A stretch of DNA of 64,000 nt from a virus (IMGVR_UViG_3300049137_000157:64001-128000), one strand, 5' to 3'. Shown: positions 1-64,000, numbered from the stretch's first letter. Numbers and translations: made by a program. Notes: generated by a model not told the origin, from the letters alone.

Positions 1-22
1 CCAAGACGTACAAGGACGCGGC

Positions 23-322
23 ATGAACAAGTCCTGGGAAAATTGCACGGACTGCGCGGATCCTCTGCGGCGTCCTTGCGACGCACACTGGGGCCAGTGG
101 TGCGAACACGGACATCGGTTGATCGAGCCGGTACAGGTTGAGCACATCTGCGAGACGGGCGGACGTGACTGTCCCGGCTGCTACCCGGAAGGTCGCTTTG
201 TCGACCCGTGGCCCTGCGGCACCTGCACTCGGGAAGACCTGGAGGCCGAGCAGAAACGGATGGAAGAGGAGTACTGGGAAGAGATGTGGAACGAGTACGC
301 CCGGATCACCTACTACGCCTAG
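23..322 (+). CDS. Hypothetical Cys/His-rich protein
   Basis: 99-aa ORF with several CxxC/CxxH motifs and an acidic C-terminal helix; same strand as the downstream gene run. Confidence 0.5.
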   Translation: MNKSWENCTDCADPLRRPCDAHWGQWCEHGHRLIEPVQVEHICETGGRDCPGCYPEGRFVDPWPCGTCTREDLEAEQKRMEEEYWEEMWNEYARITYYA

Positions 323-345
323 CTCTCGTCCGGCTGCTCGGATCC

Positions 346-361
346 TGTATCGCGCGATACA
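346..361. repeat. 16-bp perfect palindrome TGTATCGCGCGATACA, copy 1 (candidate parS)
   Basis: Intergenic and identical to the copies at 2667 and 4061. The 25-mer CTGTATCGCGCGATACAACTTCGGA is shared with copy 2. Confidence 0.85.
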
Positions 362-399
362 ACTTCGGAGGTCGTCTTGCGTGACGGACGGCCTCCGAA

Positions 400-639
400 G
401 TGGGGGGTGAAGTGGAGTCATCACGGCAGATTCGTTGGGTGGCAGACGGGCCGGGCTCGTTCCTCCGGCCGACCGGCGTAACGACAGTACGCGACCGGCA
501 GGGAATCATCTGGCGTCTGAACCCCAGCTTGAAGACGAGATGGAACAAGGACGGCAGCAACTGGATCCGGTGGCGGGTCCTCGTCGAGAACCACGGTCCG
601 CTGGTCCTGCACCAAGACTCGGAAGGAGAAGAAGCGTGA
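400..639 (+). CDS. Hypothetical protein
   Basis: 79-aa Trp-rich ORF; its stop overlaps the next start (GTGA). Confidence 0.45.
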   Translation: MGGEVESSRQIRWVADGPGSFLRPTGVTTVRDRQGIIWRLNPSLKTRWNKDGSNWIRWRVLVENHGPLVLHQDSEGEEA

Positions 640-926
640 CCGTCTATGTGGACGAGATTAAGGACTACGGCGTGATCGCCCGCGCCAAGGGCCTTCGGTA
701 CACGCACTGGAGTCACCTGCTCGCGGACACCGAGGAAGAATTGCACGCTTTCGCCATGCGTCTTGGCCTGCGCCGAAGCTGGTTCCAGAACCCGAGCAAC
801 TATCGGTGGCACTACGACGTGGTGCCGACGAAGCGGGCGCAGGCCATCGAAATGGGTGCGGTCGAGATCGACCGACAGCAAGTGGCGGAGCTGATGGCCC
901 GGCGTCGGGCCGCCGCCAGTACATAG
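636..926 (+). CDS. DUF4031-like protein
   Basis: GTG start after AAGGAG. Motifs VYVD, WSHLLADTEEELHAFA.RLGL.R.WFQ and HYDV...R..AI..GA, recognised from memory of the family. Confidence 0.7.
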   Translation: MTVYVDEIKDYGVIARAKGLRYTHWSHLLADTEEELHAFAMRLGLRRSWFQNPSNYRWHYDVVPTKRAQAIEMGAVEIDRQQVAELMARRRAAAST

Positions 927-951
927 AACTCTCGGAAAGGAAAAGATCAAG

Positions 952-1488
952 ATGAACAAAGTGACCCAGATGACCCTTCGCGACGTCGAGCGGATCGCCC
1001 GTGAGGCGCACACCGATGTGGACAAGATCGGGGTGCCGTACTTCAACCACGTCCGGGCCGTGGCCGATGGCCTCGAACCCCTCGGCGTCGAACTGGAGAT
1101 GGCAGGACTCCTGCACGACATCATCGAAGACACGCCCTGGACCGCACAGGCGCTGAAGGATGCGGGCGTCCCGGTCTCGGTGGTGGACATCGTCGAGTCG
1201 GTGACCAATACCCCCGGCCAGCGCTACCTGGAGAAGATCGAAGCGATCACCCGGCACCCGGACGGCCTCCTGGTGAAGATCTCCGACAACGCACACAACA
1301 GCCGTCAGGACCGACTCGACAAGCTGCCCGAGGACACGCGACGACGGCTCATCCAGAAGTACGAGAAGACTCGCCGGATCCTGTGGACGGCGGCCCGTCC
1401 GGACGACGTCCGCACCATCGTCAACATCGTGAACCCGGCGCTCTTGCAGACGGAGAGGCACCTCCTCTCCCGGGGCGAGGTGACGTGA
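952..1488 (+). CDS. HD-domain phosphohydrolase (RelA/SpoT-hydrolase/Mesh1-like)
   Basis: AREAH..VDK.G.PY..H...VA, AGLLHDIIEDT and VKISDN.HN motifs; RBS AAGGA. Confidence 0.8.
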   Translation: MNKVTQMTLRDVERIAREAHTDVDKIGVPYFNHVRAVADGLEPLGVELEMAGLLHDIIEDTPWTAQALKDAGVPVSVVDIVESVTNTPGQRYLEKIEAITRHPDGLLVKISDNAHNSRQDRLDKLPEDTRRRLIQKYEKTRRILWTAARPDDVRTIVNIVNPALLQTERHLLSRGEVT

Positions 1489-2702: not shown

Positions 2703-3878
2703 GTGGGGAAGAAGCCTCCGGAGAGAGTCCGTCGGGCCAGTGAGGCCAACGACGCAGTGGAACGGATCCTCTCCGAGACTCAGCAGCTCTGGGAAGAACT
2801 CGGCAAGATTCCCCAGGGTCAGGAGAACGCAGTTCGTGTGAGACGCGGAGACATGCCCGTCTGGCCCGTCCAGCTCGAACGCGCTCTGGGCTTCGGAGGG
2901 CTGGCGCATGTCATGGACCGGGTGGTCAGGTATTCGATCGTCGATATGTGGCGCAAGCAGGGGCGGGTTGCCTACGACCTGCATCCGGAGATTGCGGCGC
3001 AGCTCTATCGGACAGACCTGAAGGGCAAGATGCCGGGAGGACTGTTCCATAGGATCAGTCACATCAACCCCATGATCCCGCTCCCTCGCCCTTGGCCGTT
3101 CAAAGAGAAGAACCGCGAGGGGCTGATCCGGGGATACTTCCTCACCGGTCGGACGGGTACTGCGATCTGCACGACTACGGACAAGCGATCCGAGGGCCTC
3201 ATGCTGTCCGCCTGGATCGAATTCCCCGACCGGACCACCGGTGAGATCGAGACGGTCACCCCGTTCTTCGCCCTCCCGGACATGGGCGAGGACCCTTTCA
3301 CTTTCGACGACGTCCTCCAGGCCACACATGCCTGGCACGACCAGGAGATCACCGCAGAGGACCGCAAGCTCATCAAACAGATCGTCCCGGGCGCGCTGTC
3401 CATCCTCACGTACCTGTGTTGCGACAACCGGGACGTACAAGAGCCGCCTCCGGAACGGCCGAACGCCAAGCGAAAGCAGGCCCCTCCCCGGGATCCGTAC
3501 TACGTCCGGGTCGGATGGAAAATCGGACCCAAGCTCCACGCGAACCGGATGCGCGTCCAGGGGCGCACACGCGACGGAGTGTCCTTCCCTTCAGGCATCG
3601 AACAGGAGCCGCAGCATCGAGCAGGGCACTACAAGGTCATTCATCATGGCCCCAGGAAGAGCCTCTGGAGTCTGAAATGGGTGGACCCGTACTGGACCAA
3701 GCTGGATCTGCTGGAGGAGGGGAAGGAGCCGGTCACCTCGGTCGTCCCGGTGGACGCGCAGAGACGGGATCCTGCCGGTCACCGCGACGTCCGGTTGGCG
3801 AACCTCGGTACCGAGAAGGCCAAGGAGATCAGAGACAGGGAGCGTCAGCAGGCCCGAGAGGAGCGGTGGTCTTGGTAA
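2703..3878 (+). CDS. Hypothetical protein (about 390 aa)
   Basis: Long ORF. Start re-picked at GTG 2703 after AAAGGGA, so that the palindrome is intergenic. C-terminal HRAGHYK...GP.....KWVDPYW motif. Confidence 0.75.
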   Translation: MGKKPPERVRRASEANDAVERILSETQQLWEELGKIPQGQENAVRVRRGDMPVWPVQLERALGFGGLAHVMDRVVRYSIVDMWRKQGRVAYDLHPEIAAQLYRTDLKGKMPGGLFHRISHINPMIPLPRPWPFKEKNREGLIRGYFLTGRTGTAICTTTDKRSEGLMLSAWIEFPDRTTGEIETVTPFFALPDMGEDPFTFDDVLQATHAWHDQEITAEDRKLIKQIVPGALSILTYLCCDNRDVQEPPPERPNAKRKQAPPRDPYYVRVGWKIGPKLHANRMRVQGRTRDGVSFPSGIEQEPQHRAGHYKVIHHGPRKSLWSLKWVDPYWTKLDLLEEGKEPVTSVVPVDAQRRDPAGHRDVRLANLGTEKAKEIRDRERQQAREERWSW

Positions 3879-4060: not shown

Positions 4061-4076
4061 TGTATCGCGCGATACA
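4061..4076. repeat. 16-bp perfect palindrome, copy 3 (candidate parS)
   Basis: 9 bp beyond the stop codon of the ParA partner gene. Confidence 0.85.
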
Positions 4077-4085
4077 ACTCCGGGG

Positions 4086-4967
4086 TCACTCCTCCAGAGA
4101 GTCGACTCCGAGTTCCTTGAAGATCGTGCGGGCTACAAGGAGGGACACCTCGGGCTGACTTCGAGCGACCCTCCGTACGAGGTCCGGATCGAAGGCCCCC
4201 GGCCGGGACTGGAAACGCAGCACCGGGACATCGCTCTTGCTTTCGTTGCTCTCACCCTCAGAGACCTCTTTGACCGAGTCCAGACCGAACTGTTTGCGCA
4301 GACGCAGCAGAGACGGTGCGCTGGTGTCATTCAGGTCGAGTGCGGCCTCCCAGACAGTGCGTACCTTCTCGGGTCCGTGGCCGGTCAGAACGGGTGACAG
4401 GGCGTCGATCTGACGAACTCCCAGGGATTCCACCGAGAGTCCCGCCAAGGCGTCCCTGAGAGGCTCCTCGCGCGTCATCCGGTAGGCATGCTGCCGGGAA
4501 ACCTTGACCAGCTTCAGCCAGGCCGACCAGGATCGACACGGCTTGCCTGTGGAAGGATCTACCGCTTCTCGCCAGGACTCCGTCGACCAAGCCAGCCGCA
4601 CGGCCGGACCCGCGTACTGGAAATACGACGACAGGGCCTTCTGCTGCATAGCGTCCAGCAGGGCGTTCGCCGCGTGCAAACGCTTCTCGCAGGCGACAAC
4701 GATCTCGGCCGGGCTGTGCGAGATATCCGGCAGTTCCGCCACCAGGGCCTTACCGACGACGTCAGGCAGCAGTCTGTCCGGTTCCGCTGCGGGTGCCGGG
4801 GCGGCCTCGGCCTCTTCGACCGGCTGAGCAGTGTCCTCGGAGGTCTGCTGCTGGGAGGGGACGGGCGAGGTCTCCCCGTCCTTCGTCACCTCGATCGGAC
4901 CGTGGCCCGACGGGGGGAGCATCCCTCGTCGCGGGGTTTTTGGGCCGATGATCTGTCCCTTCGACAT
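4086..4967 (-). CDS. ParA partner, putative centromere-binding (ParB-role) protein
   Basis: Translationally coupled downstream of parA. Disordered N-terminus and HTH-like segment WSAWLKLVKVSRQHAYRM. No ParB CTPase GxxR box recognised. Confidence 0.6.
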   Translation of the reverse strand: MSKGQIIGPKTPRRGMLPPSGHGPIEVTKDGETSPVPSQQQTSEDTAQPVEEAEAAPAPAAEPDRLLPDVVGKALVAELPDISHSPAEIVVACEKRLHAANALLDAMQQKALSSYFQYAGPAVRLAWSTESWREAVDPSTGKPCRSWSAWLKLVKVSRQHAYRMTREEPLRDALAGLSVESLGVRQIDALSPVLTGHGPEKVRTVWEAALDLNDTSAPSLLRLRKQFGLDSVKEVSEGESNESKSDVPVLRFQSRPGAFDPDLVRRVARSQPEVSLLVARTIFKELGVDSLEE

Positions 4968-5758
4968 CAGATGCTCACCTTCTCGACCTCGCGCTGGGTC
5001 ATCAAGCCGGAATCCAGGACTTCGCGGGCCGTCAGAATCTCCGTCTCCAGGAGCAGCGGCAGGAAGCCCACGAGGTCCTTCCAGCGGGGGCAGTCCTCGT
5101 CGACGGCGGACCCGCGCATTTGCGGAACCCGCCCGAAGGCCCGCTTGTAAGCCACCAGCATCGGGATGTCGGTGTCGACGAGAGGATAGGACCCGTCAGG
5201 TCCGTTCTCCTCCTCCAGCAAGAGCTGGTACCGGGCGTCGTCCTTGTCGCGGGAGTTCTCACACCTGGACAGGACGTAGTACATGGCGCAGCCGCCGACG
5301 GAGTTCCGGCTGGCCGCCATCAGCGCGGCGTCCCGGGTCTTCGGGGCCTGCTCCAGATCACCTTCGTCGGGGCACAGGGGCACGAGCAGCTTGTGGGCCC
5401 GCTTCACCGCCGCCTGGAACGCGGCGACGTTGCCGCCGCCGACGTCCACGATGACGTAATCGACATCGCCCCTGGCGAGGACCTTGTCGATCTCCCGGTC
5501 CAGGGTGTCGAAGGGGTGCCGAATCACTTCCACCGGCCAGTCGTAGCCGCGCTGCTGGGCCTTGACCGGCCAGTTCGAGGAGGTCTGCGAGCCGGAGTCC
5601 GCGTCGAAGACCACGACCGTCCGGCGGAAAACTGTCGAGAGAATGAGGGCGATCAGCATAGCCAGTCGCGTTTTGCCGGTTCCGCCCTTGAGCGCGCCGA
5701 CGACGTAGACCTTGGTTTCCACCCTGTCCGCAGGCGGGGTCGGGGAGGGGACCTTCAT
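4967..5758 (-). CDS. parA: ParA-family partition ATPase
   Basis: Deviant Walker A LKGGTGKT, VVVFDADSGSQ, Walker B YVIVDVGG and LLVPL.P motifs; start re-picked at ATG 5758 after AAAGGA. Confidence 0.92.
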   Translation of the reverse strand: MKVPSPTPPADRVETKVYVVGALKGGTGKTRLAMLIALILSTVFRRTVVVFDADSGSQTSSNWPVKAQQRGYDWPVEVIRHPFDTLDREIDKVLARGDVDYVIVDVGGGNVAAFQAAVKRAHKLLVPLCPDEGDLEQAPKTRDAALMAASRNSVGGCAMYYVLSRCENSRDKDDARYQLLLEEENGPDGSYPLVDTDIPMLVAYKRAFGRVPQMRGSAVDEDCPRWKDLVGFLPLLLETEILTAREVLDSGLMTQREVEKVSI

Positions 5759-5901: not shown

Positions 5902-6276
5902 CTACACGCCGGTCCGGTTGTACTCCTTCACACGCTCCGGCGGGTCGGGCGGCTCGATGTGCTGAGTTCTCATCTGTGCCGTGAGGTCCGAGACGTACAT
6001 CGTGAAGGCTCTGACCAGTGACCGCAACGAGAGGGCCTCCGCTTTCAAGTTGTCGATCTCGTGCTGCATGTCGTCCCGGATCGCCTGGAACGCGGCGAGA
6101 TCGGCTGCCCTCTGAGCGGGCTCGGCGGCCATCTGTGTTTGGTACCTCTGGGCCTCTGCCGTGGTACGGGCGGCTGCCTTCGTCGCCCTTGCCGCGAAAA
6201 GCCCGCTCGCAAGCAGGGCGGATGCCCCGAGGAAGGCACTGACTACCCCGGCCAGGACACCCCAAGTTCCCGTCAT
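5902..6276 (-). CDS. Lysis-cassette membrane protein (N-terminal TM plus coiled coil)
   Basis: Hydrophobic N-terminus, heptad-like helix, C-terminal EPPDPPE; coupled to the upstream gene. Confidence 0.7.
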   Translation of the reverse strand: MTGTWGVLAGVVSAFLGASALLASGLFAARATKAAARTTAEAQRYQTQMAAEPAQRAADLAAFQAIRDDMQHEIDNLKAEALSLRSLVRAFTMYVSDLTAQMRTQHIEPPDPPERVKEYNRTGV

Positions 6277-6701
6277 CGTCTCCTCCGCCAGAGTGAATAA
6301 GGGAGAGAATGCTCCGGGATGGTGGAGATCCAGAGGATGACTCCGACGTGACTGGTGGCGAACCAGAGGAACACCGCGAGACCTCGCGTATACCCGTAGA
6401 ACAGCGCGGAAGACAGGTAGGCGATGCCCCAGATCAGCGGAGGAGTGAGTGCGGCGATGAATCCCAGCAGGTCACGGCCGATCCGGAGCCAGGCGCAGGC
6501 GAATGTGAGCGCACCGCACACCACCCAGGTCAGCGACCACAAGCGGATCCCACCTGCTTCCTGAAGAAGGACAAGGCCCCGAGGGACCGGCCCTGTCGCC
6601 TGGACCGCCAGTCCGTACGACACTTTGCCGATGCCGAGGAGCGCGAGAGCAGTGCCTCGGCGGCCCAGGAGCTTTCCGAGCCGCCGGACCGCCGAGAGCA
6701 T
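6273..6701 (-). CDS. Lysis-cassette multi-TM protein (holin-like accessory)
   Basis: Four hydrophobic segments; directly follows the holin. Confidence 0.7.
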   Translation of the reverse strand: MLSAVRRLGKLLGRRGTALALLGIGKVSYGLAVQATGPVPRGLVLLQEAGGIRLWSLTWVVCGALTFACAWLRIGRDLLGFIAALTPPLIWGIAYLSSALFYGYTRGLAVFLWFATSHVGVILWISTIPEHSLPYSLWRRRR

Positions 6702-6704
6702 GGG

Positions 6705-6965
6705 TCAGACCCCCTTGACGGTGGAGGCCGAGTTCTTCGTGCCGAGGTAGCGGGCCACCAGTCCCTTCACGAGGGACCCGACGGCTGCGACCCCAGCGGC
6801 GAGGGTGGTCTCCCAGAAGGAAGCGGAGAACAGATCGCCGGGTCCGGCAAGAACGGCGACACTGCCTGCCGCGAACAGGAACGTCCACACGATCCGTTCG
6901 AGCAAGTCCTTGGCGTACGTGGTCCCCGTCTTGACGACGGTCTCCATGTCGGGGATGTCAGTCAC
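6705..6965 (-). CDS. Holin (actinophage type)
   Basis: 86 aa with two TMs and KDLLERIVWTF...AAGVAAVGSLVKGL; directly downstream of the endolysin. Confidence 0.75.
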   Translation of the reverse strand: MTDIPDMETVVKTGTTYAKDLLERIVWTFLFAAGSVAVLAGPGDLFSASFWETTLAAGVAAVGSLVKGLVARYLGTKNSASTVKGV

Positions 6966-7002: not shown

Positions 7003-7914
7003 TTACGAGACGACCTCGAAGCCGTACTTGTTGCCGAGGCGGGTCAGGGAGTCTCGTCCGGGGATTCCGTCGGCGGCCTGTCCGGTGTAGCCACACTTGC
7101 GCTGCCAGGCGGAGTAGGCGTCGAGAGTGGTCGTCCCGTAGTGGCCGTCGGAGAATCGCTTTTCCAGCAGACCGGCATTGACGAGGGCAACTTCGACTGT
7201 CTTGACGCCGCTGTAGCTGACGGGTGTGCCCCTCTTCTCCGGGTCGGAGTTCGCCGCGATGATCAGCTTGGAAAGGTCGACCTTCGGCTTCTGTGGGGCC
7301 GGAAGCGGTGCGGGCTTGTTCTGCTGCTTCAGCCGGTCCGCGATACGGGCCCGCATGGTGTTCATCGAGAACCCACGGGGGTCGGGTTTGCCCGGCTGCC
7401 ACTCCAGGTGACCGATGACGCTTCCCGAGGACCAGCGGTGATAACGGCACAGGGCGGCTGCGGCCATCTCGATTGCTTCAAGTTGGGCCTCCGGCCACGG
7501 ATCCTTCCCGTCGCCCAGGTTGACGCACTCGAAACCATAGAAATGGGCGTTGCCGTCGACCGTCGCTTGGTTGTCGACGGGAAGTGCGGTTTCGGCGACG
7601 ACGGCGCGCAGCACGTCCGGGTCACCGAGACCGGCGTGATTGGCGCGGCCGTAGCCGACGAGGTGAACGGTTCCGTCCTTGGCGATGACTCCGTGACACA
7701 GCGGGCCCGGAAGGGTGGAATGTCCGTCCCGACAGAGCTGAACGCTGTAATTGGTCCCCTCGGTGACGGTGTGGTGGATCATCACGCCATTGAGTGGACC
7801 CCAAGCACCCTTGGAGTTTCGGTTGTGCGTCTCCCAGTCACCATGCTCGATGACTTTGAGGCCCTCACTCCGAAGGAGGTCCGCGAATTTCGCGGCGGTG
7901 GGCGGCTTGGCCAT
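7003..7914 (-). CDS. Endolysin, N-acetylmuramoyl-L-alanine amidase with C-terminal peptidoglycan-binding domain
   Basis: Amidase_2 motifs GVMIHHT, ANHAG, FYGFECVN and GHLEWQPGKPDP; PG-binding repeat DGHYG..T..AYSAWQ...G.....ADGIPG. Confidence 0.93.
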   Translation of the reverse strand: MAKPPTAAKFADLLRSEGLKVIEHGDWETHNRNSKGAWGPLNGVMIHHTVTEGTNYSVQLCRDGHSTLPGPLCHGVIAKDGTVHLVGYGRANHAGLGDPDVLRAVVAETALPVDNQATVDGNAHFYGFECVNLGDGKDPWPEAQLEAIEMAAAALCRYHRWSSGSVIGHLEWQPGKPDPRGFSMNTMRARIADRLKQQNKPAPLPAPQKPKVDLSKLIIAANSDPEKRGTPVSYSGVKTVEVALVNAGLLEKRFSDGHYGTTTLDAYSAWQRKCGYTGQAADGIPGRDSLTRLGNKYGFEVVS

Positions 7915-12241: not shown

Positions 12242-12303
12242 CAGGTGTGTCGCCAGAAGCGGGAAACCGCGAAAACGGTGAAAACGGAAAAGGAGAAGAA
12301 ACG

Positions 12304-13425
12304 GTGCTGAAGAAGCTGAGGGGAAACACGGTTCAGGTCGAGGGCCCCGCCCCGGAGCTGACGCCGAAGAAGAAGAAGTTCACCGGAATGGCGGTCTTCG
12401 CAAGTCTCCTGACCGTCGGAACCATCGCCTGGTCGACCCACTCGATCCTCGACGTGCTGGACGCAGGCAAGATCGGCCTGGCGTTCGCGGGACTGGCCGA
12501 CCTTGGCTGGCTCTCCATCACCTACGCCAAGTGGCGCGGCACCCGGCTCCCCGTTCCTCACCGGGAGAAGTACACCGAGGTCTACGAGGACGGCAGCAAG
12601 GTCGAGCGGAAGGTCTGGAACCCCCGGCGCAGCACCTGGCCGGTCACCCTGATCGGCTGGATCATCGCGGTGATCGTCTCCGGCCTCCTCGTCCTCCACG
12701 GTGTGCAGGACGAGAACCTCGGTACCATGCTGGCCGCCATCTTCCCGATCATCACCAAGCTGATCTGGACTGTCGCCATCGCCGACGCCAAGGACCCGGC
12801 CGACCTGACCGAGGACGATCTGGAGGAGATCGCCGAGACGAAGCGAGAGGCCGCCAAGGTCCTGGCGCTGGCCGAGGCCGAGAAGGCCCAGAAGCAGGCC
12901 GAGCTGGAGGCCGCCCGCATCGACCGGCAGAACCAGAGGGAAGAGGCGGAGGCCAAGGCGGAGATGGAGCGGGCCGAGCGGCGTCGGAAGCACGAGGCCA
13001 ACCTCGACGAGGCCGAGATGTCCGCCGAGCTGGAGTTCGTCACCGCCGAGCGGACCATCGAACACCAGATCCGGATGCAGGACATGTACGGGAAGCTGGA
13101 TGCCCGGCAGGCGGAGGCCGAGCGGGCCCGTCGCTACCTGATGCCGCCGACCTACACGATCCCGGGTCAGATCGTCCGTACCGACCAGCAGGTTTCGGGC
13201 AGCGCCCCGTCTCTTGGGCAGGCTCCGGTCTTCCCGGGGCAGCAGCAGGAGCCGCTCTCCCCGAAGGAGGAGCTGGCACTCAAGTACTGGCAGGAGCACC
13301 AGGCGACCCAGATCACCAAGAAGGACTTCGCCACGACCATCGCGATGGTTCACCCGGCACGCGTGACGGAGGCGACCAAGGACTTCTCCCCCGAGTACTT
13401 CATGGCCAAGGGGCTGCTCGCCTGA
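12304..13425 (+). CDS. SpdB-like plasmid spread protein (4 TM plus coiled coil)
   Basis: Four N-terminal hydrophobic segments, a long E/A/K/R coiled coil and a C-terminal helical domain. Start re-picked at GTG 12304 after AAGGAG; the ORF is open from 12247. Confidence 0.6.
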   Translation: MLKKLRGNTVQVEGPAPELTPKKKKFTGMAVFASLLTVGTIAWSTHSILDVLDAGKIGLAFAGLADLGWLSITYAKWRGTRLPVPHREKYTEVYEDGSKVERKVWNPRRSTWPVTLIGWIIAVIVSGLLVLHGVQDENLGTMLAAIFPIITKLIWTVAIADAKDPADLTEDDLEEIAETKREAAKVLALAEAEKAQKQAELEAARIDRQNQREEAEAKAEMERAERRRKHEANLDEAEMSAELEFVTAERTIEHQIRMQDMYGKLDARQAEAERARRYLMPPTYTIPGQIVRTDQQVSGSAPSLGQAPVFPGQQQEPLSPKEELALKYWQEHQATQITKKDFATTIAMVHPARVTEATKDFSPEYFMAKGLLA

Positions 13426-17091: not shown

Positions 17092-17101
17092 GGCCTAGGC
17101 C
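17092..17101. promoter_or_regulatory. GGCCTAGGCC operator upstream of the GntR gene
   Basis: 32 bp upstream of the GntR ATG, in the divergent intergenic region. Confidence 0.7.
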
Positions 17102-17346
17102 ACTAGTGTGCCATGCTGAAGACACGAAAAGCCAGCCGAGAAAGGCGGAAAGGCACCGAAGAGCGTAACAATCTGTGCCTCTGGGCACCTTTGTGCCCTG
17201 GGACGCGTACCCAGCGTGACGAAACCGTCCGCCGGGAAACGTTGTAACCCTGCTCAGGATACAGAGAGACGCTCACTCCGCCGAGTGGCCAGGGCCATTG
17301 ATTTGACCTTGATCCAACGGTTGCAACGGTGAGGAGAGGAAGCGTG

Positions 17347-45076: not shown

Positions 45077-45080
45077 CGCG

Positions 45081-50585: not shown

Positions 50586-50594
50586 CTGAACCTC

Positions 50595-51047: not shown

Positions 51048-51705
51048 GCGAGGCCGACAGGCCCGTGCCCACCGACTCCATCAGTCGGACCATCTCGGAG
51101 GAGATCAGCTTGCGCATCAGCTTCTCGGCACCCTGCGGGGTGGGCGGGGCCACCACCCGGCCGTCGGACAGCGTCATGCGGATGCAGAAGTGCGAGATCT
51201 GCGCGGCCAGGGTGTACCGGGTCCGCGCGGTCATGTATTCGAGATCGTCCTCGGAGGCGTTCTTGTAGTTCGGGTGGTCGTGGAGGAATTTCCGAGCTGC
51301 CGCCCGGGTCACCTCACCCAGTTCCTCGGACGTCTTGACCTGGAACGTCAGCTTGATGGCCGTGGAGAGGATCTTCACTCGCAGCTCATCCTTGCGCTTC
51401 TGGAGCTGCTCGATCTCGGAGGTGATCGTGTCGCGGTCGTTCAAGTACTGGTCCAGGACCGGGTCGACGAGACCGCTGGCGGGGCTGTTCGACCGGTCGG
51501 ATATGACCTTGTCGAGCTTGTCCAGTTCCTCGACGAGGTCGTCCAGGGTGTCGGACACATCGGCCAGTTCGGCACCGCTGCGCTGGTCGATGTAGGCAAC
51601 GTGATCGAACTCGGGGAAGGTCGACTTTCCTTCGAGGTAGTCCTCGAAATTGAAAGTGTCGGGACCGGGTTCCGGGGACCCGGTGACCGTGGTGTTCTCC
51701 GTCAT
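50905..51705 (-). CDS. Tail assembly chaperone (G-like)
   Basis: Located between major tail and tape measure genes; coiled-coil-rich. Confidence 0.8.
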   Translation of the reverse strand: MTENTTVTGSPEPGPDTFNFEDYLEGKSTFPEFDHVAYIDQRSGAELADVSDTLDDLVEELDKLDKVISDRSNSPASGLVDPVLDQYLNDRDTITSEIEQLQKRKDELRVKILSTAIKLTFQVKTSEELGEVTRAAARKFLHDHPNYKNASEDDLEYMTARTRYTLAAQISHFCIRMTLSDGRVVAPPTPQGAEKLMRKLISSEMVRLMESVGTGLSASREWASKLDAGFPGGGSDVEDVKLVEARTEDSQSLGDSPAPDADREAV

Positions 51706-51731
51706 GGAATTTCCCGTTCCTTGGAGGTGGA

Positions 51732-52298
51732 TCAGCTAGCGAGAGCGCCGACCTGAACCAGGCCGTCGGACGAAACGCCCTGGGGGTAGAAAGTCGGCTG
51801 GAGCTGGAGAGGGGCGGACGCGTCGGTGATGACGTTCGGGTCACCGGAAAGGAACTTGAAAACGGTGACCCAGTCACCGTCGACGATGTTCGGGTTCCGG
51901 ACCGGGTGCTTGGAAATCCGCTGCACCAGGTAGCCCTGACGAAGGGGCTTCTTGAACAGACGCATCACATCGTTGTAGATGGACTCGTCCACCTTGTTCG
52001 GGTCCTGGTCGACGAAAATGTTGAGCTGACCCTCATAGTTCTTGGCGGTCGGGTTGGCCACATTCGAGTCGTCACACAAACCACGGGTGTCGTCGGTGTC
52101 ACGCTCCGTCCAGCCGAGCGTGAGATCGGTGGTCAGGGCACACGTGATGTTCAGGCCCGCGTTGATTTCGGCGGCCGTCGGAGCATCGACGTTGACTATC
52201 CCCTCGCCGTAGACCCCCTCGTATCCGAGAGTGGTCTGGTCGCCGTCATCGACCCAGAAGATCGAGATGTTCGGCGGTAGTGCCTTCACTGCTGCCAT
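51732..52298 (-). CDS. Major tail (tube) protein
   Basis: APTAAEINAG.NITCAL motif of actinophage tail tubes; RBS AAGGAG; canonical position. Confidence 0.85.
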   Translation of the reverse strand: MAAVKALPPNISIFWVDDGDQTTLGYEGVYGEGIVNVDAPTAAEINAGLNITCALTTDLTLGWTERDTDDTRGLCDDSNVANPTAKNYEGQLNIFVDQDPNKVDESIYNDVMRLFKKPLRQGYLVQRISKHPVRNPNIVDGDWVTVFKFLSGDPNVITDASAPLQLQPTFYPQGVSSDGLVQVGALAS

Positions 52299-52345
52299 CG
52301 AGATCTCCTTGCATACGACGTCGTTGATCTCGAAGCTGATATTAA

Positions 52346-52394
52346 CGACGAAAAGGCCCCCTCCGTGAATGTCTTAGAGAGGGCCTTTTCGTCG
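52346..52394. terminator. Strong hairpin between the tail terminator gene and the major tail gene
   Basis: CGACGAAAAGGCCC...GGGCCTTTTCGTCG, with T-runs available on both strands. Confidence 0.75.
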
Positions 52395-52452
52395 AGAAGG
52401 ACGTCAGGCGAAACCCGGTTTCCGAGTTCCCTTATTCAGTTCTTCGAATTAC

Positions 52453-52956
52453 TCAGGAATTACCAGCCGAGATAGGCGGATTCGGTGAAGTGCTGGTCCG
52501 GCCCACCGCGATGACTCCGGTCCACCCGACCGAAAGATAGAACCTGCGAGTGTCGCCGATTCCCACCAGATACGGGTCCCGGACCGTGCCGGAACCGGCC
52601 TCGGTCAGCTCACCCAGGCCCACCGGCTGATACCCGGTCAGCAGATCCCGGACCGCCTGCGCCAACTGAAGAGCCGACAGGCCGGACGGTGCGACGTTCT
52701 GCACAAGGAAGGACGCCTGCTTCACCACGCTGTCACCACCCGTTCCGCAGAGGTCGGTCATCCCGTTCGATCCGCCATAGGTCGCCATGTCGTACGCCTG
52801 GCCGAACCACAGGATCAGAGACGGCTTGAAGAACGCGGACGGGTCCTTGACCACGTCGACGTTCTCGGTGATGCCCTCCAGGTAGACCGGGGTGTTGGGC
52901 AGCCCCTCCTCCAGTCGCCGTTTCACGTCGAGCTGCCAGTCGAGCAGTGTCGGCAT
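52453..52956 (-). CDS. Tail terminator / tail completion protein
   Basis: 167 aa directly upstream of the major tail gene; ...VRDLLTGYQP motif. Confidence 0.7.
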   Translation of the reverse strand: MPTLLDWQLDVKRRLEEGLPNTPVYLEGITENVDVVKDPSAFFKPSLILWFGQAYDMATYGGSNGMTDLCGTGGDSVVKQASFLVQNVAPSGLSALQLAQAVRDLLTGYQPVGLGELTEAGSGTVRDPYLVGIGDTRRFYLSVGWTGVIAVGRTSTSPNPPISAGNS

Positions 52957-52968
52957 ACTCTTCCCCTC

Positions 52969-53376
52969 CTACTTGAGCCGGGCCTGAAGCTCGGCGACCA
53001 CCTGCGTGTAGCCGTTCAACACGGCCTTCATCGCGGTGATGCCGTTCTGCGTGCCGAACTCCTGGAAGGGCGCGTAGTAGGGGGCCAGCTCCTCCCAGCC
53101 GAACGTGATCTTCAGGATGTCGGTGCCGAAGTCGCCCGTTCCCGTGACCTGGCGCTTCATCGATCCGGTATCCACACGGGACCGCGCCCGGACAAGACCC
53201 TCGCCACGACGCCGCGCATTCGACATATCCAGCACCAGCCGCTGTCGGGTCTGGTTCAGATGGTTGACCACGAACGCGGACAGCCCCGTGTTCTGAGCGC
53301 TGCGGATGCTCCCGCCCCGGTAGTACCGGTAGGAGCTGCCAAACTGGTAGTTGTACTTGAACTCCACGTACGCCAT
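52969..53376 (-). CDS. HK97 gp10-like neck/tail component
   Basis: ARSRVDTGSMK and YAPFQEFGT motifs. Confidence 0.8.
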   Translation of the reverse strand: MAYVEFKYNYQFGSSYRYYRGGSIRSAQNTGLSAFVVNHLNQTRQRLVLDMSNARRRGEGLVRARSRVDTGSMKRQVTGTGDFGTDILKITFGWEELAPYYAPFQEFGTQNGITAMKAVLNGYTQVVAELQARLK

Positions 53377-53388
53377 GAGGAACGCCTC

Positions 53389-54237
53389 CTAGATCTGGTA
53401 GACGCCCCCCAGTGCGCCGACCTCCAGTGTCGTCGAAAGATTGCTGTTGAGGTCCACGGTTTCATGGTCCTTGTGGGAGACGGCGTGAGCGTTCAGTTCC
53501 CCGGAGGACATGGCCAGAAGACGTTCGGCGCGTTCCACCAATGAACCTCCGGACAGGGGCCGACCCTGCCGGTTGTATCCGTAGAAGCCCGCGTGATAGG
53601 CCCGGGGCCGCGCGGTGTAGACCGTCACGCCACCCACGCCTTCCCTCACCCGGTTGACGAGACCGTCCTGCTCGGCGAACGGGGCGGGGATCGCACTCGA
53701 AGGAAACGTCCGGGTGCAGTAGCCGACCATGTTCCGGAAGTACGCCGGGACCGCGTGCTCCAGGACGAGTTCCACCGCTTTCGGCCTGAGGGATACCCCG
53801 AGAGACTGGTACGAGGGATGCGTGTACGCGGCCCCGTCGTCCATGGCGTTCTGATTCCGGCAGGCACTCACAGCGAAGGCGTCCGGCACCGCCCGGTGCA
53901 TGTCCTCGTGGAACGAGAAGTACGTCGCGGCGACGAAGATGTCCTCCTCGACCACGTGCAGGAGGTCCGGCTTAAAGGTCAGACAGTCCCGCATCCCCGT
54001 CAGCACGTTGTAGGAGTTGCCGTGGAAGCGGTGCGGAGGGACCTGCCGCAGGTGCAGCCCGGCAAAAGCGTCCGAGGAGGCGAACGCCTGAGCCGCCTCC
54101 ACGCACTCGGAACTGCCCGCACGGTCAAGGCTGACCACAACGTGCACGTCCTCGGCTCGGGCGGCCTGAAGGCGCGTCAGGCAGGCGTACAGCATGTCGG
54201 GTCTACGCCAGGCCGGAACGAGGACGACATGCTTCAC
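53389..54237 (-). CDS. GT-A fold glycosyltransferase
   Basis: VVLVPAWRRPDML..CL..L, VVVSLD and LLHVVEEDIFV (acidic metal-binding motif). Confidence 0.78.
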   Translation of the reverse strand: MKHVVLVPAWRRPDMLYACLTRLQAARAEDVHVVVSLDRAGSSECVEAAQAFASSDAFAGLHLRQVPPHRFHGNSYNVLTGMRDCLTFKPDLLHVVEEDIFVAATYFSFHEDMHRAVPDAFAVSACRNQNAMDDGAAYTHPSYQSLGVSLRPKAVELVLEHAVPAYFRNMVGYCTRTFPSSAIPAPFAEQDGLVNRVREGVGGVTVYTARPRAYHAGFYGYNRQGRPLSGGSLVERAERLLAMSSGELNAHAVSHKDHETVDLNSNLSTTLEVGALGGVYQI

Positions 54238-55142
54238 AGCTTCTCCAGCAGTTCGAGGGCCGTGTCCCGGAACGCATGATTGCGGACGAGGAAGTGCCTG
54301 CGGGCAAGACGTCCCATCTCCGAGCGGTCCTCCGGGGCGAGGGACGCAGCCCGGCGTACAGCTTCAGCGATCGAATCGGGGCCCGCCAACAGAAGATGCG
54401 ACTGATGATGCTTGGAGGGGCCTGTCGGGGCGTCTATCAGGAAACCCCAGCCCGGCCGGATGTGCTCGTTCATCGGGGATCCGTTGGTCGTGACGACCAC
54501 GGCCTCCGCCGACATGGCCTCGGTGATGTAGTGGCCCCAGCCCTCCGCCCTCGACGGGCACACGTGGATCTCCGCCTGGTTGATAAGGGTGTCCAGCTCC
54601 TCCACGCTGGGACTCACGACCAGCCGGACTCCGTACGGCACGGGCATGTCGTCCCGGGACACCACCGTGAGCGGGGGCAGATCGGGGTGGGCCCGCCAGG
54701 CTTCGAGGACCTGCATGGTCCCCTTCATGTCGGATTTCCCCCGGATGTGCAGGCACTCCAGACGACGGGGAACGGACCGGTCCATGCGGTCCTTCCCCAG
54801 GAAGCCCGTCATGTACGTCGTCCGGCTGCCGTGCCGGACGCAGGTGTTGTGCGCATCCCAGCCCTTGGCCCAGATCTGATCGAAGGCCGGAATGTAACGG
54901 AGCCACTCGCGGGGGTACCACTCCATGTTCGGAACGAGCACGTTCCGGTGTGCCCGCTTGGCGAGCGTCACGCTGACGAGTTCCAGATGGAACGCCGCGT
55001 CGGCCAGTTCCATCGTGCGCGACTTCCACGGCACAAAGCTGACCTGGTGTCCGGCGCTCTCGAAGAGATCGGTCAGCAGCTCGACATCCAGCGACAAACC
55101 CACCCCGTTGTCGTTGGTGAGCAGGGCTATCTTCAGGCCCAC
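54234..55142 (-). CDS. GT-B fold glycosyltransferase (GT4-like)
   Basis: VCPSRAEGWGHYITEAMSAEAVVVTT..SPMNEHI, the EX7E motif of GT4 enzymes. Confidence 0.88.
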   Translation of the reverse strand: MGLKIALLTNDNGVGLSLDVELLTDLFESAGHQVSFVPWKSRTMELADAAFHLELVSVTLAKRAHRNVLVPNMEWYPREWLRYIPAFDQIWAKGWDAHNTCVRHGSRTTYMTGFLGKDRMDRSVPRRLECLHIRGKSDMKGTMQVLEAWRAHPDLPPLTVVSRDDMPVPYGVRLVVSPSVEELDTLINQAEIHVCPSRAEGWGHYITEAMSAEAVVVTTNGSPMNEHIRPGWGFLIDAPTGPSKHHQSHLLLAGPDSIAEAVRRAASLAPEDRSEMGRLARRHFLVRNHAFRDTALELLEKL

Positions 55143-56509: not shown

Positions 56510-57109
56510 GTGCTCCTTAGCGACTACCACCTGATCGCCGCGATCTCCACGCAGCGCATTTCCGTCGAGCCCTACAGCCCGAGGATGATCCAGCCCGCGT
56601 CCCTCGAAGTGAGTCTCGACCGAAGATTCCTGGTCTTCGACAGCCACCTCTACTCGCACATAGATCCGCAGGAAGAGCAGCCGGATCTGACGCGTCTCGT
56701 GGAGGTGGAGGACGACCAACCGTTCATTCTCCATCCCGGCGAGTTCGTCCTCGGCAGCGTCCTGGAGAAGACGACTCTCGGCAGTGACCTCGCAGCGCGC
56801 GTCGAAGGTAAAAGTTCCTTGGGGCGTCTCGGGCTTGTTGTTCATTCCACGGCGGGATTCATAGACCCGGGGTTCTCCGGTCACATCACGCTGGAGTTGT
56901 CCAACCTCGCCACCCTGCCGATCAAGCTGTGGCCCGGCATGAAGATCGGTCAACTCTGCTTCTTCGAACTGACAGGGCCAGCCGAGTTCCCCTACGGAAG
57001 CCCGGAACGCGGCTCCCACTACCAGGGGCAGTCCGGGCCCACGCCCTCCCGGTCATGGCAACGCTTCTATCGCAGCAAGATCCCGTCATCCGCAACCCGG
57101 CAGAGTTGA
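56510..57109 (+). CDS. dcd: dCTP deaminase
   Basis: MLLSD, QPASL...[48 protein letters not shown] and YQGQ motifs. Confidence 0.95.
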
Positions 57110-57881: not shown

Positions 57882-58112
57882 TCAGCACGCCGACCCCTCT
57901 CCCTTCGATGCCTGGATGATGTCGACCTGCTGCTCCCACGGCAGGTCGTGCAAGAACTGAGCCAAGCCGTAAAGCCTCGACTTGGCGGCACGCGCCTCGA
58001 TCTCGTTGCTGGCAGGCAAGGGGACCCAGGTGGCGGTGCACCACGGGGCACCCATGAAGCAGTGCAGCGCTCCGTGCGAGAAGCACCAGGCGTACTGAAG
58101 CGCCTCGGTCAT
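57882..58112 (-). CDS. Hypothetical protein
   Basis: 76 aa, WCFSHG.LH.F....WCTA.WV motif. Confidence 0.55.
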   Translation of the reverse strand: MTEALQYAWCFSHGALHCFMGAPWCTATWVPLPASNEIEARAAKSRLYGLAQFLHDLPWEQQVDIIQASKGEGSAC

Positions 58113-60819: not shown

Positions 60820-61728
60820 TCAGCCGGAGAGCAGGTCGGCTATCGCCCGGGAGATGGGTTGCCCGGTGGCCAGCTCGATGAACCCGAACTGACCTCCCGG
60901 GTTGCACTCCAGGAACCACCACCGACCCTCGCGGTCCACGACGAAGTCGAACGCCCCGTAGGTCAGACCACTCAGCCCCATGAACGCGTTGACCGCAGCC
61001 TCCACGTACGGGGGTGTCGGAACTTCCTTCCACTGCACCCCTTCGGTGAACCGGACGTCCGCGTCGGCGCACTGGGCCTCGGCGCAGAACATCTCGGTGC
61101 CCACGACCGTGAGCCGGATGTCCGCGATCTTCTCCACGGCCTGCTGAAAACAGGTCGGAGACCCCGCAACCGAGGACAGGTCGACGTCGGGGGAGATCCG
61201 CGCAGTCGGCAGGGCAACGCCATCCGGCTGGCGGCCGGACACCGTCTTGCACACCATCGGACCATTGTGACTCCGAAAGTACCTGGCCTCGACATCGCAT
61301 GTCGTGACCAAGGTGGGGGGAGTGAGCAGTCCGGCCCGGTGGGCGAGGAGGAGCTGAGGCGTCTTGTAGCGAGCCCTCTCGTGGGCCTCCGGGTCATTGA
61401 CCCACCGGACCCCCGGCAAGGCCCTCAGGGAGCCGTAGAAGGCGTGCAGAGCTTCGTGCGCGGACCACTCCTGATGCGCCCCGGGAACCGCGCCAGGGAG
61501 CCCCGGGCGGCGCACCCAGACCGACCTGATCGACGACAGCAGGAGCCTGCGACGTCCGTCCCAGAGGTACCCATCGACCACCCCGTGCTCAGTGACAGAG
61601 GTGAGGTCGACCCGGCCCGGAAAATCGGCCGGGTCGACCCTGAAGACAGGCGTACCGGCCTGGTGGAGCTGGTGCACCACCATGTCCGCAGTCACGTCTT
61701 CCGGGCACGTGAGCACCAGCACCGTCAT
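60820..61728 (-). CDS. tgmB: ATP-grasp ribosomal peptide maturase (graspetide synthetase-like)
   Basis: YKTPQL..A...GL.TPPTLVT, VCKTVS, CFQQAVEK.ADIRLTVVG and YGAFDF...G.WWFLECNP.GQF motifs. Confidence 0.88.
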   Translation of the reverse strand: MTVLVLTCPEDVTADMVVHQLHQAGTPVFRVDPADFPGRVDLTSVTEHGVVDGYLWDGRRRLLLSSIRSVWVRRPGLPGAVPGAHQEWSAHEALHAFYGSLRALPGVRWVNDPEAHERARYKTPQLLLAHRAGLLTPPTLVTTCDVEARYFRSHNGPMVCKTVSGRQPDGVALPTARISPDVDLSSVAGSPTCFQQAVEKIADIRLTVVGTEMFCAEAQCADADVRFTEGVQWKEVPTPPYVEAAVNAFMGLSGLTYGAFDFVVDREGRWWFLECNPGGQFGFIELATGQPISRAIADLLSG

Positions 61729-61920: not shown

Positions 61921-61974
61921 GGAGGTTCACTCCCTACGGGGATGAGTTTGCGAAAACTCCGGCAGCAGGGCGTC

Positions 61975-62328
61975 TCAGGAGAACATCACCAGTAGGACGT
62001 CACTTCGCCGGAGGGTGTTCCTCAGGTCCTCGAACTCGTGCTCATCAAGGCCCGTGTGCGCTCGGGACGGGATGGCAACAACTTCCGCTTCCCCGGAAGT
62101 GTGGTCGAGGACCTTCCGCCATCCTCTCCGATGATCCAGAGAGGCGTGGGGGTCTTCTTCGATCACGGTGGCCACGTGCGGCCATCCTCGGAACCGTGTG
62201 TACTCCTCCGCCTTACGGGTCAAGCGCTCCCGGGCGGCCTCGTCGGAGGTGCAGATGTATGCGACGACGGGCGTAGGCCCGTGGCGGCAGGGACGGTCGT
62301 CGTGACACCCGTACATGAGGTGAGACAT
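61975..62328 (-). CDS. Serine-recombinase (resolvase) catalytic-domain-like small protein, probably degenerate
   Basis: VVAYI, GWPHV..VIEED, RRGWRKVL and VVAIPSR...G motifs echo the resolvase N-domain; no YxRxS and no HTH; ATG after GAGGAG. Confidence 0.5.
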   Translation of the reverse strand: MSHLMYGCHDDRPCRHGPTPVVAYICTSDEAARERLTRKAEEYTRFRGWPHVATVIEEDPHASLDHRRGWRKVLDHTSGEAEVVAIPSRAHTGLDEHEFEDLRNTLRRSDVLLVMFS

Positions 62329-62440
62329 CGGGCTCCTCGGGTCGACCGGCGACAAACTCTGACGGAAGTTCACCAGGTATCTCCGGTCGTACCGCAAGAG
62401 TAGAGCCGCGAATTCACTCGAAGGAAGGCCCGGTCGAGAG

Positions 62441-62456
62441 AGTGGCATATGCCACT
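62441..62456. promoter_or_regulatory. 16-bp perfect palindrome AGTGGCATATGCCACT
   Basis: Upstream of the recombinase-like/RiPP gene run. Confidence 0.55.
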
Positions 62457-62493
62457 TTTCCAGCCGGGCCTTCTGTGTGCTGACCTGCGGAAA

Positions 62494-62946
62494 CTACTTC
62501 TTGGGTGGATCTTCCCGAGTGGTCCGCCGGGCACTCAGGCTGGAAACCCCACGACTGAGCGAGTCGGCGCGGTCCGCTGCGGCCAGAAGCACCATCGCCA
62601 AGCGACGGGCGTCGGTCGGGTGCATGGCCACGAAGTCGAGCTGACGCTCCCAGTCGGCCAGCACGTACGGATCCGGCTGGGCGACGTAGACGCTGTCTCG
62701 GGCCTCCGTCTCGTCCACCGACCGCACGACCCACATCGGCGGCCGATGGGCGAAGGGTGCGTGCTGCACCACCCTCCACTCGGCCCCGGCCATGGAATGT
62801 CCTGGCGGGTTGATGATGTCTGGCTTAGGGCGTTCTGCGCTCTCCGCGATGGCGACGAGCCGGTGCAGCTCTTCGCGGAGATCACCCAGCTTGAGATCGT
62901 CGAAGCCGGTCACTGGCCGGAGGTTCGCTTCTGCTGCTCCCGCCAC
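62494..62946 (-). CDS. Hypothetical protein
   Basis: 150-aa ORF; start uncertain because of overlap with the next ORF. Confidence 0.5.
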   Translation of the reverse strand: MAGAAEANLRPVTGFDDLKLGDLREELHRLVAIAESAERPKPDIINPPGHSMAGAEWRVVQHAPFAHRPPMWVVRSVDETEARDSVYVAQPDPYVLADWERQLDFVAMHPTDARRLAMVLLAAADRADSLSRGVSSLSARRTTREDPPKK

Positions 62947-63107
62947 TCCAGGCGCAGCTCACGGAGATCGTTGCAGATCCCGTCGTAGACGCCTTTCGCG
63001 CGCACGAGAGTCTTTCGCGCATCTTCGGCGTCAGCTTCCAGACGCCTCTTTTGGTTTTCGTACTCTTTTTCGGTCATCACGTGACCTCCCCTTCCGATTG
63101 CAGCCAA
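62910..63107 (-). CDS. Small coiled-coil protein
   Basis: RBS GGGAGG before MTEKEYENQK... Confidence 0.45.
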   Translation of the reverse strand: MAAIGRGGHVMTEKEYENQKRRLEADAEDARKTLVRAKGVYDGICNDLRELRLEWREQQKRTSGQ

Positions 63108-63658
63108 TTCAGCCCGAACGCCTCCAGAACTGAGGCAGAGACGGGGGATCCTGCGACTTCCATTTCATCGACGAGCCGTAGGGCCCGATCGGCGATCACC
63201 AGCTCCCGGGGGACGGGCGCAACGTCGTCGCCGAGGCCACGGAGGAACTCCGCGACCCTGGACCAGGAGTAGAGCGAGGTTCCCCCCACCTTCTCTTCAG
63301 GTTGCGGAAATCCTCCCGGACCTCTTTGTCCCTTTGACAGTTGCACCAGTGACTGTCGGCTTCTCCCTGCCCGTTGTGCGGCGATGTCCAGGGTTACTGT
63401 GTCGTCGTGGATCACGCGCGATGCGCGAAGCCCTTCCATCCGGCGGATCTGTCGAGAGACCAGCGCGATGGCCTCAAGGATCGAGTCAGCCTCCACGTCG
63501 CAGTACAGCTCCGACACGCCAGGGCCGCCCGTGGTGTAAGAAATGGATCCGTCTGCGAAGAGCGAAAACCATCCGTTGGCGTTGAAGTCGATCAGGTTGG
63601 TCTCAGCTCGGGTCAGTTGCCGATTGAGAGCCAGAGCGAAGGTCCATTCGACAGACAC
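63077..63658 (-). CDS. HicB-like / HTH DNA-binding protein
   Basis: DVEADSILEAIALV N-domain, then VTLDIAAQRAGRSRQSLVQLSKGQRGPGGFPQP and LYSWSRV; start re-picked at GTG 63658. Confidence 0.6.
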   Translation of the reverse strand: MSVEWTFALALNRQLTRAETNLIDFNANGWFSLFADGSISYTTGGPGVSELYCDVEADSILEAIALVSRQIRRMEGLRASRVIHDDTVTLDIAAQRAGRSRQSLVQLSKGQRGPGGFPQPEEKVGGTSLYSWSRVAEFLRGLGDDVAPVPRELVIADRALRLVDEMEVAGSPVSASVLEAFGLNWLQSEGEVT

Positions 63659-64000
63659 GCCCTTGTCCTTTTCTTGAGTTGCGGCATTTTTGCTCGTGGT
63701 AGTGACAGGGGTGGACTCGTTGCAATTCACCTCTGTCATTTCTCGATCTTCAGGCGCTCCGCCTCCGGGTACTGATGTAGGGCTTGCCGGGTTCATGCCG
63801 CCCCTGGCAGTGAACCTTCTCGTCACCCCGGAAGTACTGGTGACCGTGATGGTTCATCTCCCCGAAGAGGTGGCAGCGGATGGTCCGGATGGCAGCCACC
63901 CCTCACCCCCCGGCCGATCGAGCGGCCTCAATTTCCGCCCGAGTCACGGTCTCGAAATGCCACCACCGGCCGCCCTCCCACTGCATGATCTTCGCGCTGG

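Follow-up and report, generated by a model that had tools for sequence, protein, structure and literature searches.

The stretch of viral DNA analyzed here, IMGVR_UViG_3300049137_000157:64001-128000 (64,000 nucleotides, hereafter the window), is the middle of a complete, large Streptomyces siphovirus genome related to the prolate-headed phages of cluster BM such as Frankenweenie and Satis, and it encodes a ParA-type ATPase with a partner protein and parS-like sites that together appear to constitute a genuine partition cassette of plasmid ancestry. On comparative evidence we consider it likely, with a probability of about 0.6, that the phage persists as a low-copy extrachromosomal prophage, a phage-plasmid. 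An earlier note, made from the sequence of the window alone, had proposed that the genes of a complete siphovirus and a partition system of plasmid type reside on a single replicon, and this is borne out: all the components that it listed for the window – ParA, a partner, parS-like sites, a GntR regulator, membrane proteins, three hydrolases and the genes for replisome, tail and lysis – are present as placed.

The window comprises bases 64,001-128,000 of a single contig of 199,468 bp, and in the following, coordinates marked 'genome' refer to the whole contig and all others to the window. Inspection of the flanks for circularity, as suggested in the earlier note, revealed an exact overlap of the contig ends, the first and last 127 bases being identical; the unique genome length is about 199.3 kb, with the window as its central third. 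The contig is a virus record of IMG/VR in the direct terminal repeat (DTR) class with a CheckV completeness of 100%, and its G+C content of 63.8% is even across the window. Our own gene call, based on codon usage, places about 330 genes on the replicon and 84 within the window; these calls are rough, and the percentages of shared genes given here rest on tblastn, not on Phamerator. Matches in megablast were exclusively to the cluster BM Streptomyces phages Frankenweenie (200,048 bp), Satis, Kradal and JustBecause, by which a stretch of 20 kb was covered over 20% of its length with 73% identity, and no plasmid match was obtained in this search. As evidenced by tblastn against the four annotated quarters of Frankenweenie, 102-107 of the 330 genes (31-32%) have a counterpart there, in one collinear, inverted order. 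Membership in cluster BM calls for at least 35% gene content in common or more than 50% nucleotide identity (PMC10652959), and the gene content shared with Frankenweenie, as estimated by tblastn, lies at or just below the former threshold. The BM phages belong to the siphoviruses and have prolate heads of great length; their genomes measure 184-200 kb, with terminal repeats of ~1 kb, and according to published descriptions they carry 'no integrase or repressor' (PMC10652959, PMC6687918); the isolates are described as lytic (PMC10652959).

The head genes are located beyond the right edge of the window. The gene for the major capsid protein (genome 133,352-134,746; 82% identity to Frankenweenie) is adjoined by a head fibre gene and this in turn by a protease gene, and portal (genome 136,396-138,105; 73%) and terminase (genome 138,460-140,805; 73-80%, with 73% over residues 5-789) are similarly well conserved. 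The replicon thus holds a complete set for virion formation, packaging and lysis, including terminase, portal, protease, capsid, tail and endolysin, and we regard its identification as a BM-like phage genome as secure. The flanks had been named in the earlier note as the place to look for terminase, portal, capsid and a TraB-like gene, and all of these were found on the replicon, outside the window; a chromosomal location, or a lack of both head genes and a transfer ATPase, had been named as grounds for abandoning the idea of a single element, and the replicon is not chromosomal and carries both. No similarity to the terminal repeat of Frankenweenie was found anywhere in this genome, so that the virion ends could not be mapped. 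Note that a non-coding region of 3.2 kb at genome 157,743-160,977, ~30 kb past the end of the window, contains several repeat arrays, with four copies of GCAGGTCA at a spacing of 58-68 bp, four of TCCCTGCC, five of GTCGACGC and three of TCTCTCGTGT. This region adjoins the homologue of the last large gene of Frankenweenie, gp365, which is situated near the right end of that phage, and is a possible location of the virion ends, of an origin, or of both.

The partition ATPase, a protein of 263 residues encoded at 4967-5758(-), matches the Pfam family CbiA (1.5e-5) and phrog_164, 'ParA-like partition protein' (4.8e-17), and carries the deviant Walker A motif KGGTGKT at residues 24-30. Its gene is coupled to that of a partner of 293 residues at 4086-4967(-), for which we infer the role of centromere-binding protein; the two reading frames overlap via ATCTGATG, consistent with translational coupling, and both genes immediately follow the lysis cassette on the minus strand. 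The partner matched no Pfam, PHROG or NCBIfam family, and its helical AlphaFold2 (AF2) model, with a predicted local distance difference test score (pLDDT) of 66, gave no significant fold match by Foldseek or VIA-align, where Spo0J reached a Z of 5.2 only. Neither ParA nor the partner has a homologue at an E-value of 1e-5 in 50,697 INPHARED phage records, but on pZL1, a circular conjugative plasmid, two neighbouring genes encode proteins that are 59% and 52% identical to them, respectively.

The parS-like sites are perfect copies of the 16-bp palindrome TGTATCGCGCGATACA, three of which are found within 3.7 kb where 0.07 would be expected, a number reached in none of 100 shuffles. All three are intergenic and followed by ACTTCGG. 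The first is located at 346-361, the second at 2667-2682, after a terminator hairpin and before the ribosome-binding site and GTG start codon (2704) of the next gene, and the third at 4061-4076, 9 bp beyond the stop codon of the partner gene. In pZL1 the same palindrome is present twice, immediately past the partner gene, and it also occurs just downstream of the homologous partner gene in two related IMG/VR genomes, G002 (259,646 bp) and G003 (251,159 bp). A copy matching in 14 of 16 positions stands beside the recombinase gene described below. Note that a repeat search confined to the par locus yielded no convincing array, and that the sites were recognized by counting palindromes across the whole genome and by comparison with pZL1. 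The gene that starts behind the second site, at 2704-3878(+), has no assigned function; it matches phrog_6160 and has homologues of 54-58% identity in G002, G003 and Streptomyces cucumeris, and none in Frankenweenie and the IMG/VR genomes G004 and G005.

The statement in the earlier note that no integrase is present holds for the window only, as a tyrosine recombinase (PF00589, Phage_integrase, 6e-17, with a SAM-like N-domain) is encoded elsewhere on the replicon, at genome 14494-15504(-); no serine recombinase was found on the replicon. The best matches to this protein are tyrosine recombinases of Streptomyces plasmids of 85-125 kb, with 66% identity, and include that of the phage-like plasmid pCQ4 (65%), whereas actinophage integrases show just 28-34% identity. 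On account of these plasmid-type matches and of the distribution among relatives, a role in multimer resolution on an episome would seem preferable to one in chromosomal integration. A small gene for 76 residues at 57882-58112(-), ~107 kb from the recombinase in this genome, is found directly beside the recombinase in three par-bearing relatives.

A search with the capsid protein returned 37 IMG/VR loci and a single bacterial genome, that of S. cucumeris NEAU-Y11. Scaffold14 in the assembly of this cultured isolate, with 185,382 bp and an exact end overlap of 127 bp, is a circularly assembled, whole BM-like genome that is collinear with the present one across the genes for head, tail, replication, lysis and the Tra/Spd/GntR set, and its recombinase is 63% identical to ours. 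Its ParA and partner, however, are a different pair (32% and 25% identity) at another position (scaffold 132,961-134,816), with palindromes of their own, two copies of GTGAACCATGGTTCAC 34 bp apart just past the partner gene, and this difference points to an independent acquisition of the par cassette. The genomes G002 and G003, in contrast, share ParA (77% and 74%), the partner (53-58%), an identical parS and the recombinase with the genome described here; as the closest par-bearing relatives, they exceed every described BM phage in size by 50-60 kb. As the S. cucumeris element has a second par type, partition cassettes have apparently been acquired at least twice among the BM-like relatives.

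We further compared gene content across six relatives, Frankenweenie, G002, G003, G004, G005 and Scaffold14 of S. cucumeris. Common to all six are 67 genes, and about 15 others occur throughout the three par-bearing genomes but are missing from each of the three par-less ones. This par-linked set includes par, the recombinase, the gene beside the second parS site, a weak winged-helix protein and a protein of 605 residues, g238, which occurs in par-bearing genomes only and adjoins the repeat-rich non-coding region of 3.2 kb; no protein family was found for g238, and its atlas matches are unnamed actinobacterial clusters. ParA, partner, parS and recombinase were not found in Frankenweenie, G004 and G005, and ParA alone was sought, and not found, in five further BM-like records of IMG/VR. 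Par and recombinase thus occur together in four BM-like genomes, the present one included, and in none of the classical BM phages. In a tree of the capsid protein the par-less genomes form one well-supported clade (99/95) with par-bearing rows around it; the par-linked genes have been either lost by the classical BM phages or gained by the others.

The replicon also carries a set of genes reminiscent of conjugation in Streptomyces. A TraB-like ATPase of 452 residues with the Walker A motif GSSGSGKS is encoded at genome 57,162-58,520, 5.5 kb before the window. It is 28-31% identical (tblastn, E-values of 1e-23 to 5e-33) to the Tra proteins of pIJ101 and other small conjugative plasmids from Streptomyces, and it matches phrog_17958, 'FtsK/SpoIIIE-like', at 6.5e-40; Pfam (including the PF01580 profile), NCBIfam and PDB sequence searches gave no match. 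With an AF2 model of modest quality (pLDDT 58), Foldseek finds the coupling protein TcpA and FtsK motors, and the C-terminus is winged-helix-like. No hydrophobic membrane segment was detected in the 452 residues by a Kyte-Doolittle scan; TraA of pWTY27 has two such segments (PMC3583192). Within about 1 kb of the gene there is no cluster of 8-bp repeats of the clt type, and the sole 8-mer clusters in non-coding DNA are located at genome 158.5-160.7 kb, ~100 kb from it. The gene is also found in Streptomyces phages of about 57-68 kb.

The Spd-like membrane proteins described in the earlier note are represented by one remote relative, but not by the pair beside the GntR gene, which was probably the one meant. 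The former, an SpdB/DUF2637-like protein of 392 residues at 12247-13425(+) that belongs to the core of all six relatives, was recognized by hhalign against SpdB/DUF2637 proteins of pIJ101, two small plasmids and pZL1 (92.9%, E-value 3.7e-7, 121 columns in the membrane region); the Pfam DUF2637 profile alone gave no match, and a homologue search returned the protein itself only. The latter two, polytopic membrane proteins by transmembrane prediction at 17344-18378(+) and 18573-19205(+), are likewise core and are transcribed divergently from the GntR gene; they matched no family and gave no SpdB signal in hhalign. Hydrolase genes on the same strand encode an SLT transglycosylase (19347-19958, Pfam 5e-13), an M23 peptidase (19955-20566, Pfam 1e-33), an NlpC/P60 hydrolase (20594-21286, Pfam 5e-24) and a membrane-bound hydrolase of the YdjM family (21829-22461, PF04307 5e-16), and the SLT and M23 proteins together match one fused hydrolase encoded beside the type IV secretion system (T4SS) genes of pZL1.

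The TraB-like, SpdB-like, GntR, SLT and NlpC/P60 genes are present in six out of six relatives, lytic ones included, the separate M23 gene being the exception, and instead of being grouped in one operon, the tra-like, spdB-like and GntR genes extend across 24 kb. As they are core to the whole BM-like lineage including its lytic isolates, these genes are not a plasmid add-on, and their distribution would mark the TraB/SpdB/GntR/hydrolase set as ancestral core genes serving some phage function, not as the signature of a conjugative plasmid. This function is possibly the movement of phage DNA or the remodelling of the cell wall within the mycelium; SpdB2 homologues on the phages phiC31 and VWB were noted in 2015 and suggested to aid the spread of phage DNA (PMC4447253). 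A bolder idea, to which we give little credence at present, is that BM-like phages took over the minimal actinomycete kit for conjugation of double-stranded DNA as a whole, with the TraB-like protein as a pump, the SpdB-like one as a pore protein, the GntR regulator and secreted wall hydrolases, their genomes crossing hyphal cross-walls and infecting neighbouring compartments without an extracellular step. If true, the plasmid-prophage of the par-bearing members would spread by this kit through the mycelium, perhaps into other strains.

The regulator itself, a GntR/HutC-type protein with GntR (PF00392, 1.5e-15) and UTRA (PF07702, 1.4e-13) domains at 16328-17059(-), is 32% identical to KorA of pIJ101 and core in all six relatives, and its gene is divergent from the operon of membrane proteins and hydrolases, as traR is from spdB3 in pSVH1 (PMC4447253). 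The palindrome GGCCTAGGCC is found at 17092-17101, 33 bp upstream of the GntR start, and at 12219, 14597 and 19261 in the window, with copies preceding the SpdB-like and SLT genes. In spite of a ~7-fold depletion of CTAG it is the commonest 10-bp palindrome of the genome; its 16 copies are all found between genes, at distances of 5-145 bp ahead of a gene start, and it is the top palindrome in the relatives as well, with 15-20 copies in par-bearing and 6 in par-less genomes. Its CTAG core resembles operators of the HutC/DasR type, and we propose GGCCTAGGCC as a candidate GntR operator. If it is the operator, GntR would govern many operons, as the copies are distributed genome-wide; the separate GntR circuit for spread envisaged in the earlier note therefore probably does not exist, given a candidate site at 16 intergenic positions all round the genome.

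How these findings translate into a lifestyle has to be weighed against several other explanations. For an extrachromosomal prophage, ParA and its partner would segregate the copies by way of parS, the recombinase would resolve multimers and virions would carry the element between hosts, with the plasmid-derived genes – the par cassette, the recombinase and a few others – dispersed around the genome atop the core genome of the lineage. A number of points weigh against this. The genome stems from a metagenome and no plasmid state has been observed for it; a linear genome with terminal repeats can also yield a circular assembly; and neither a clear immunity repressor nor a clear initiator of plasmid replication could be identified on the replicon. 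The cultured relatives are all described as lytic (PMC10652959), no finished plasmid record in PLSDB contains a BM-like capsid gene, the S. cucumeris contig could represent a carrier state rather than stable maintenance, and the par system could act during lytic growth in long hyphae. Much of this would equally suit a strictly lytic large phage in which par and recombinase are accessories of the infection stage, for instance positioning or separating replicating genomes along the hyphae or resolving concatemers or dimers, or else recently captured passengers of no consequence for lifestyle. All cultured BM phages being lytic and devoid of integrase or repressor (PMC10652959), neither a repressor nor a Rep protein being recognized here and BM-like elements being absent from the finished plasmid records of PLSDB, this is the alternative that we take most seriously, although we consider it unlikely. 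Against it, par, parS and recombinase are jointly retained in no fewer than three other genomes with protein identities of 25-79%; the parS sequence is unchanged in G002 and G003 only, but the S. cucumeris element has acquired a different par cassette, and a whole related genome is present in the assembly of a purified isolate. The retention of par and recombinase across relatives, along with the exchange of the cassette in S. cucumeris, argues for selection on partition.

The low-copy extrachromosomal prophage also has to be set against the fuller proposal of the earlier note, by which the element would in addition be conjugative, transferring double-stranded DNA through the TraB-like translocase, Spd-like proteins and wall hydrolases under control of a Kor- or TraR-like GntR protein. 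The similarity of the TraB-like protein to Tra proteins including that of pIJ101, its TcpA- and FtsK-like fold with a winged-helix-like C-terminus, the SpdB-like protein, the pSVH1-like divergence of GntR gene and membrane-protein operon (PMC4447253) and the match of SLT and M23 to a hydrolase adjoining the transfer genes of pZL1 all speak for it. These very genes, however, belong to the core shared with lytic relatives, and the TraB-like gene extends to much smaller Streptomyces phages; the TraB-like protein has no predicted membrane segment, no 8-bp repeat cluster is found at or near its gene, the tra-like, spdB-like and GntR genes are scattered and the candidate GntR operator is genome-wide, and we hold conjugative spread to be very unlikely. 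A chimeric assembly of phage and plasmid, finally, might be suspected from the metagenomic source and the resemblance of the par genes to plasmid genes, but the same ParA and partner have the same phage genes as neighbours on a second contig, from Logan, both occur in G002 and G003 next to a homologue of the neighbouring gene, and the G+C content is even across the window. With the par genes found in the same phage context on the Logan contig and in G002 and G003, this explanation was rejected, its probability being practically negligible.

The remaining genes of the window follow the order of a BM-like phage. Lysis genes comprise an endolysin, an N-acetylmuramoyl-L-alanine amidase at 7003-7914(-) (Amidase_2, 1.6e-19; 54% identity to Frankenweenie gp128), and downstream of it three small holin-like membrane proteins at 5902-6965(-) with one, three and one predicted transmembrane segments, two of which match the Frankenweenie membrane proteins gp130 and gp131 at 54-60%. 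The replication block at 24073-38416(+) encodes, according to Pfam, a UvrD-type helicase (24073-25578), a primase/helicase (33136-35403; 72% identical to that of Frankenweenie) and the family A DNA polymerase PolA (36392-38416; 63%) besides associated genes; the replication genes show 54-72% identity to gp91, gp76 and gp74 of Frankenweenie. ARAGORN places a tRNA-Val(GAC) at 24247-24330(-), antisense within the gene of the UvrD-type helicase, which is likely a false call, and no further tRNA on the whole replicon, where Frankenweenie has 15. The tail operon at 40880-55142(-) contains minor tail proteins, the tape measure of 1834 residues (45081-50585(-); 53% identity), the tail tube (51732-52298(-); 81%) and two glycosyltransferases, with matches to the profiles PhageMin_Tail, Phage_TTP_16 and Glycos_transf_1 and 49-81% identity to Frankenweenie gp60-gp69. 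An ATP-grasp ligase of the MvdD type is encoded at 60820-61728(-).

Phage-plasmids are well studied in enterobacteria and mycobacteria, but in Streptomyces only the pZL12 type of 85-90 kb has been characterized. A lineage of which only lytic isolates with prolate heads and genomes of ~190 kb were known is now seen to have relatives of 185-260 kb with par cassettes and a plasmid-type recombinase, one of them in a cultured isolate, S. cucumeris, and this provides a testable system. The questions that it addresses are by what means multinucleate hyphae maintain very large phage genomes, how lytic clades emerge from temperate clades or vice versa, and what role a conserved TraB/SpdB/GntR gene set plays in a virus.

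Among known systems, the phage-plasmids P1 and N15 are tailed phages in which partition likewise replaces or supplements integration. The same holds for the extrachromosomal prophages with parABS among cluster A mycobacteriophages (PMC7157519). With respect to all of these there is no sequence relation, the genome described here is far larger, its partner falls outside the recognized ParB families and its plasmid state is inferred. The TraB/Spd/TraR systems of pIJ101 and pSVH1 similarly combine an FtsK-like translocase, an SpdB-like protein and a GntR gene divergent from a membrane-protein operon (PMC4447253); unlike these, the present genome has an ATPase without membrane anchor, no clt repeats that could be found and dispersed genes, and the set is present in lytic phages. 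The plasmid-phages pZL12, pCQ4 and pSLE1, circular elements of 85-90 kb, also join a virion module to ParA/ParB on a Streptomyces replicon (PMC4487206). The tyrosine recombinase and the dCTP deaminase of pCQ4 are 65% and 67% identical to those of this genome, the latter encoded at 56510-57109(+). Only six genes match in the part of pCQ4 to which the comparison extends, a stretch of 24.9 kb, none of them structural or for replication. The likeness to pZL12 drawn in the earlier note thus stands for the concept of a virion module with partition, but not for the virion genes, which by comparison with this 24.9-kb stretch appear unrelated to those of the pZL12/pCQ4 type.

The T4SS-type conjugative plasmid pZL1 of Streptomyces sp. 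14R-10 (NC_023316, 127.9 kb) shares parA, the partner, the palindrome and the SLT-M23 hydrolase with this genome. In the first 37.8 kb of pZL1, to which the comparison extends, no phage structural gene is annotated or matched, and its transfer genes (TrbL, an 'SCO6880 family protein' and a type IV conjugative DNA-transfer protein) are matched by none of the genes described here. The BM phages Frankenweenie, Satis, JustBecause and Kradal, finally, are of the same size range and have collinear genes for head, tail, lysis and replication as well as the TraB-like, SpdB-like and GntR genes and most of the hydrolases in common with it. They nevertheless share only about a third of its called genes, and they differ in a G+C content of 66.5% against 63.8%, in 6 against 16 GGCCTAGGCC sites and in a tRNA array that is missing here. 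Where the BM phages are devoid of ParA, partner, parS and tyrosine recombinase, the present genome has them all.

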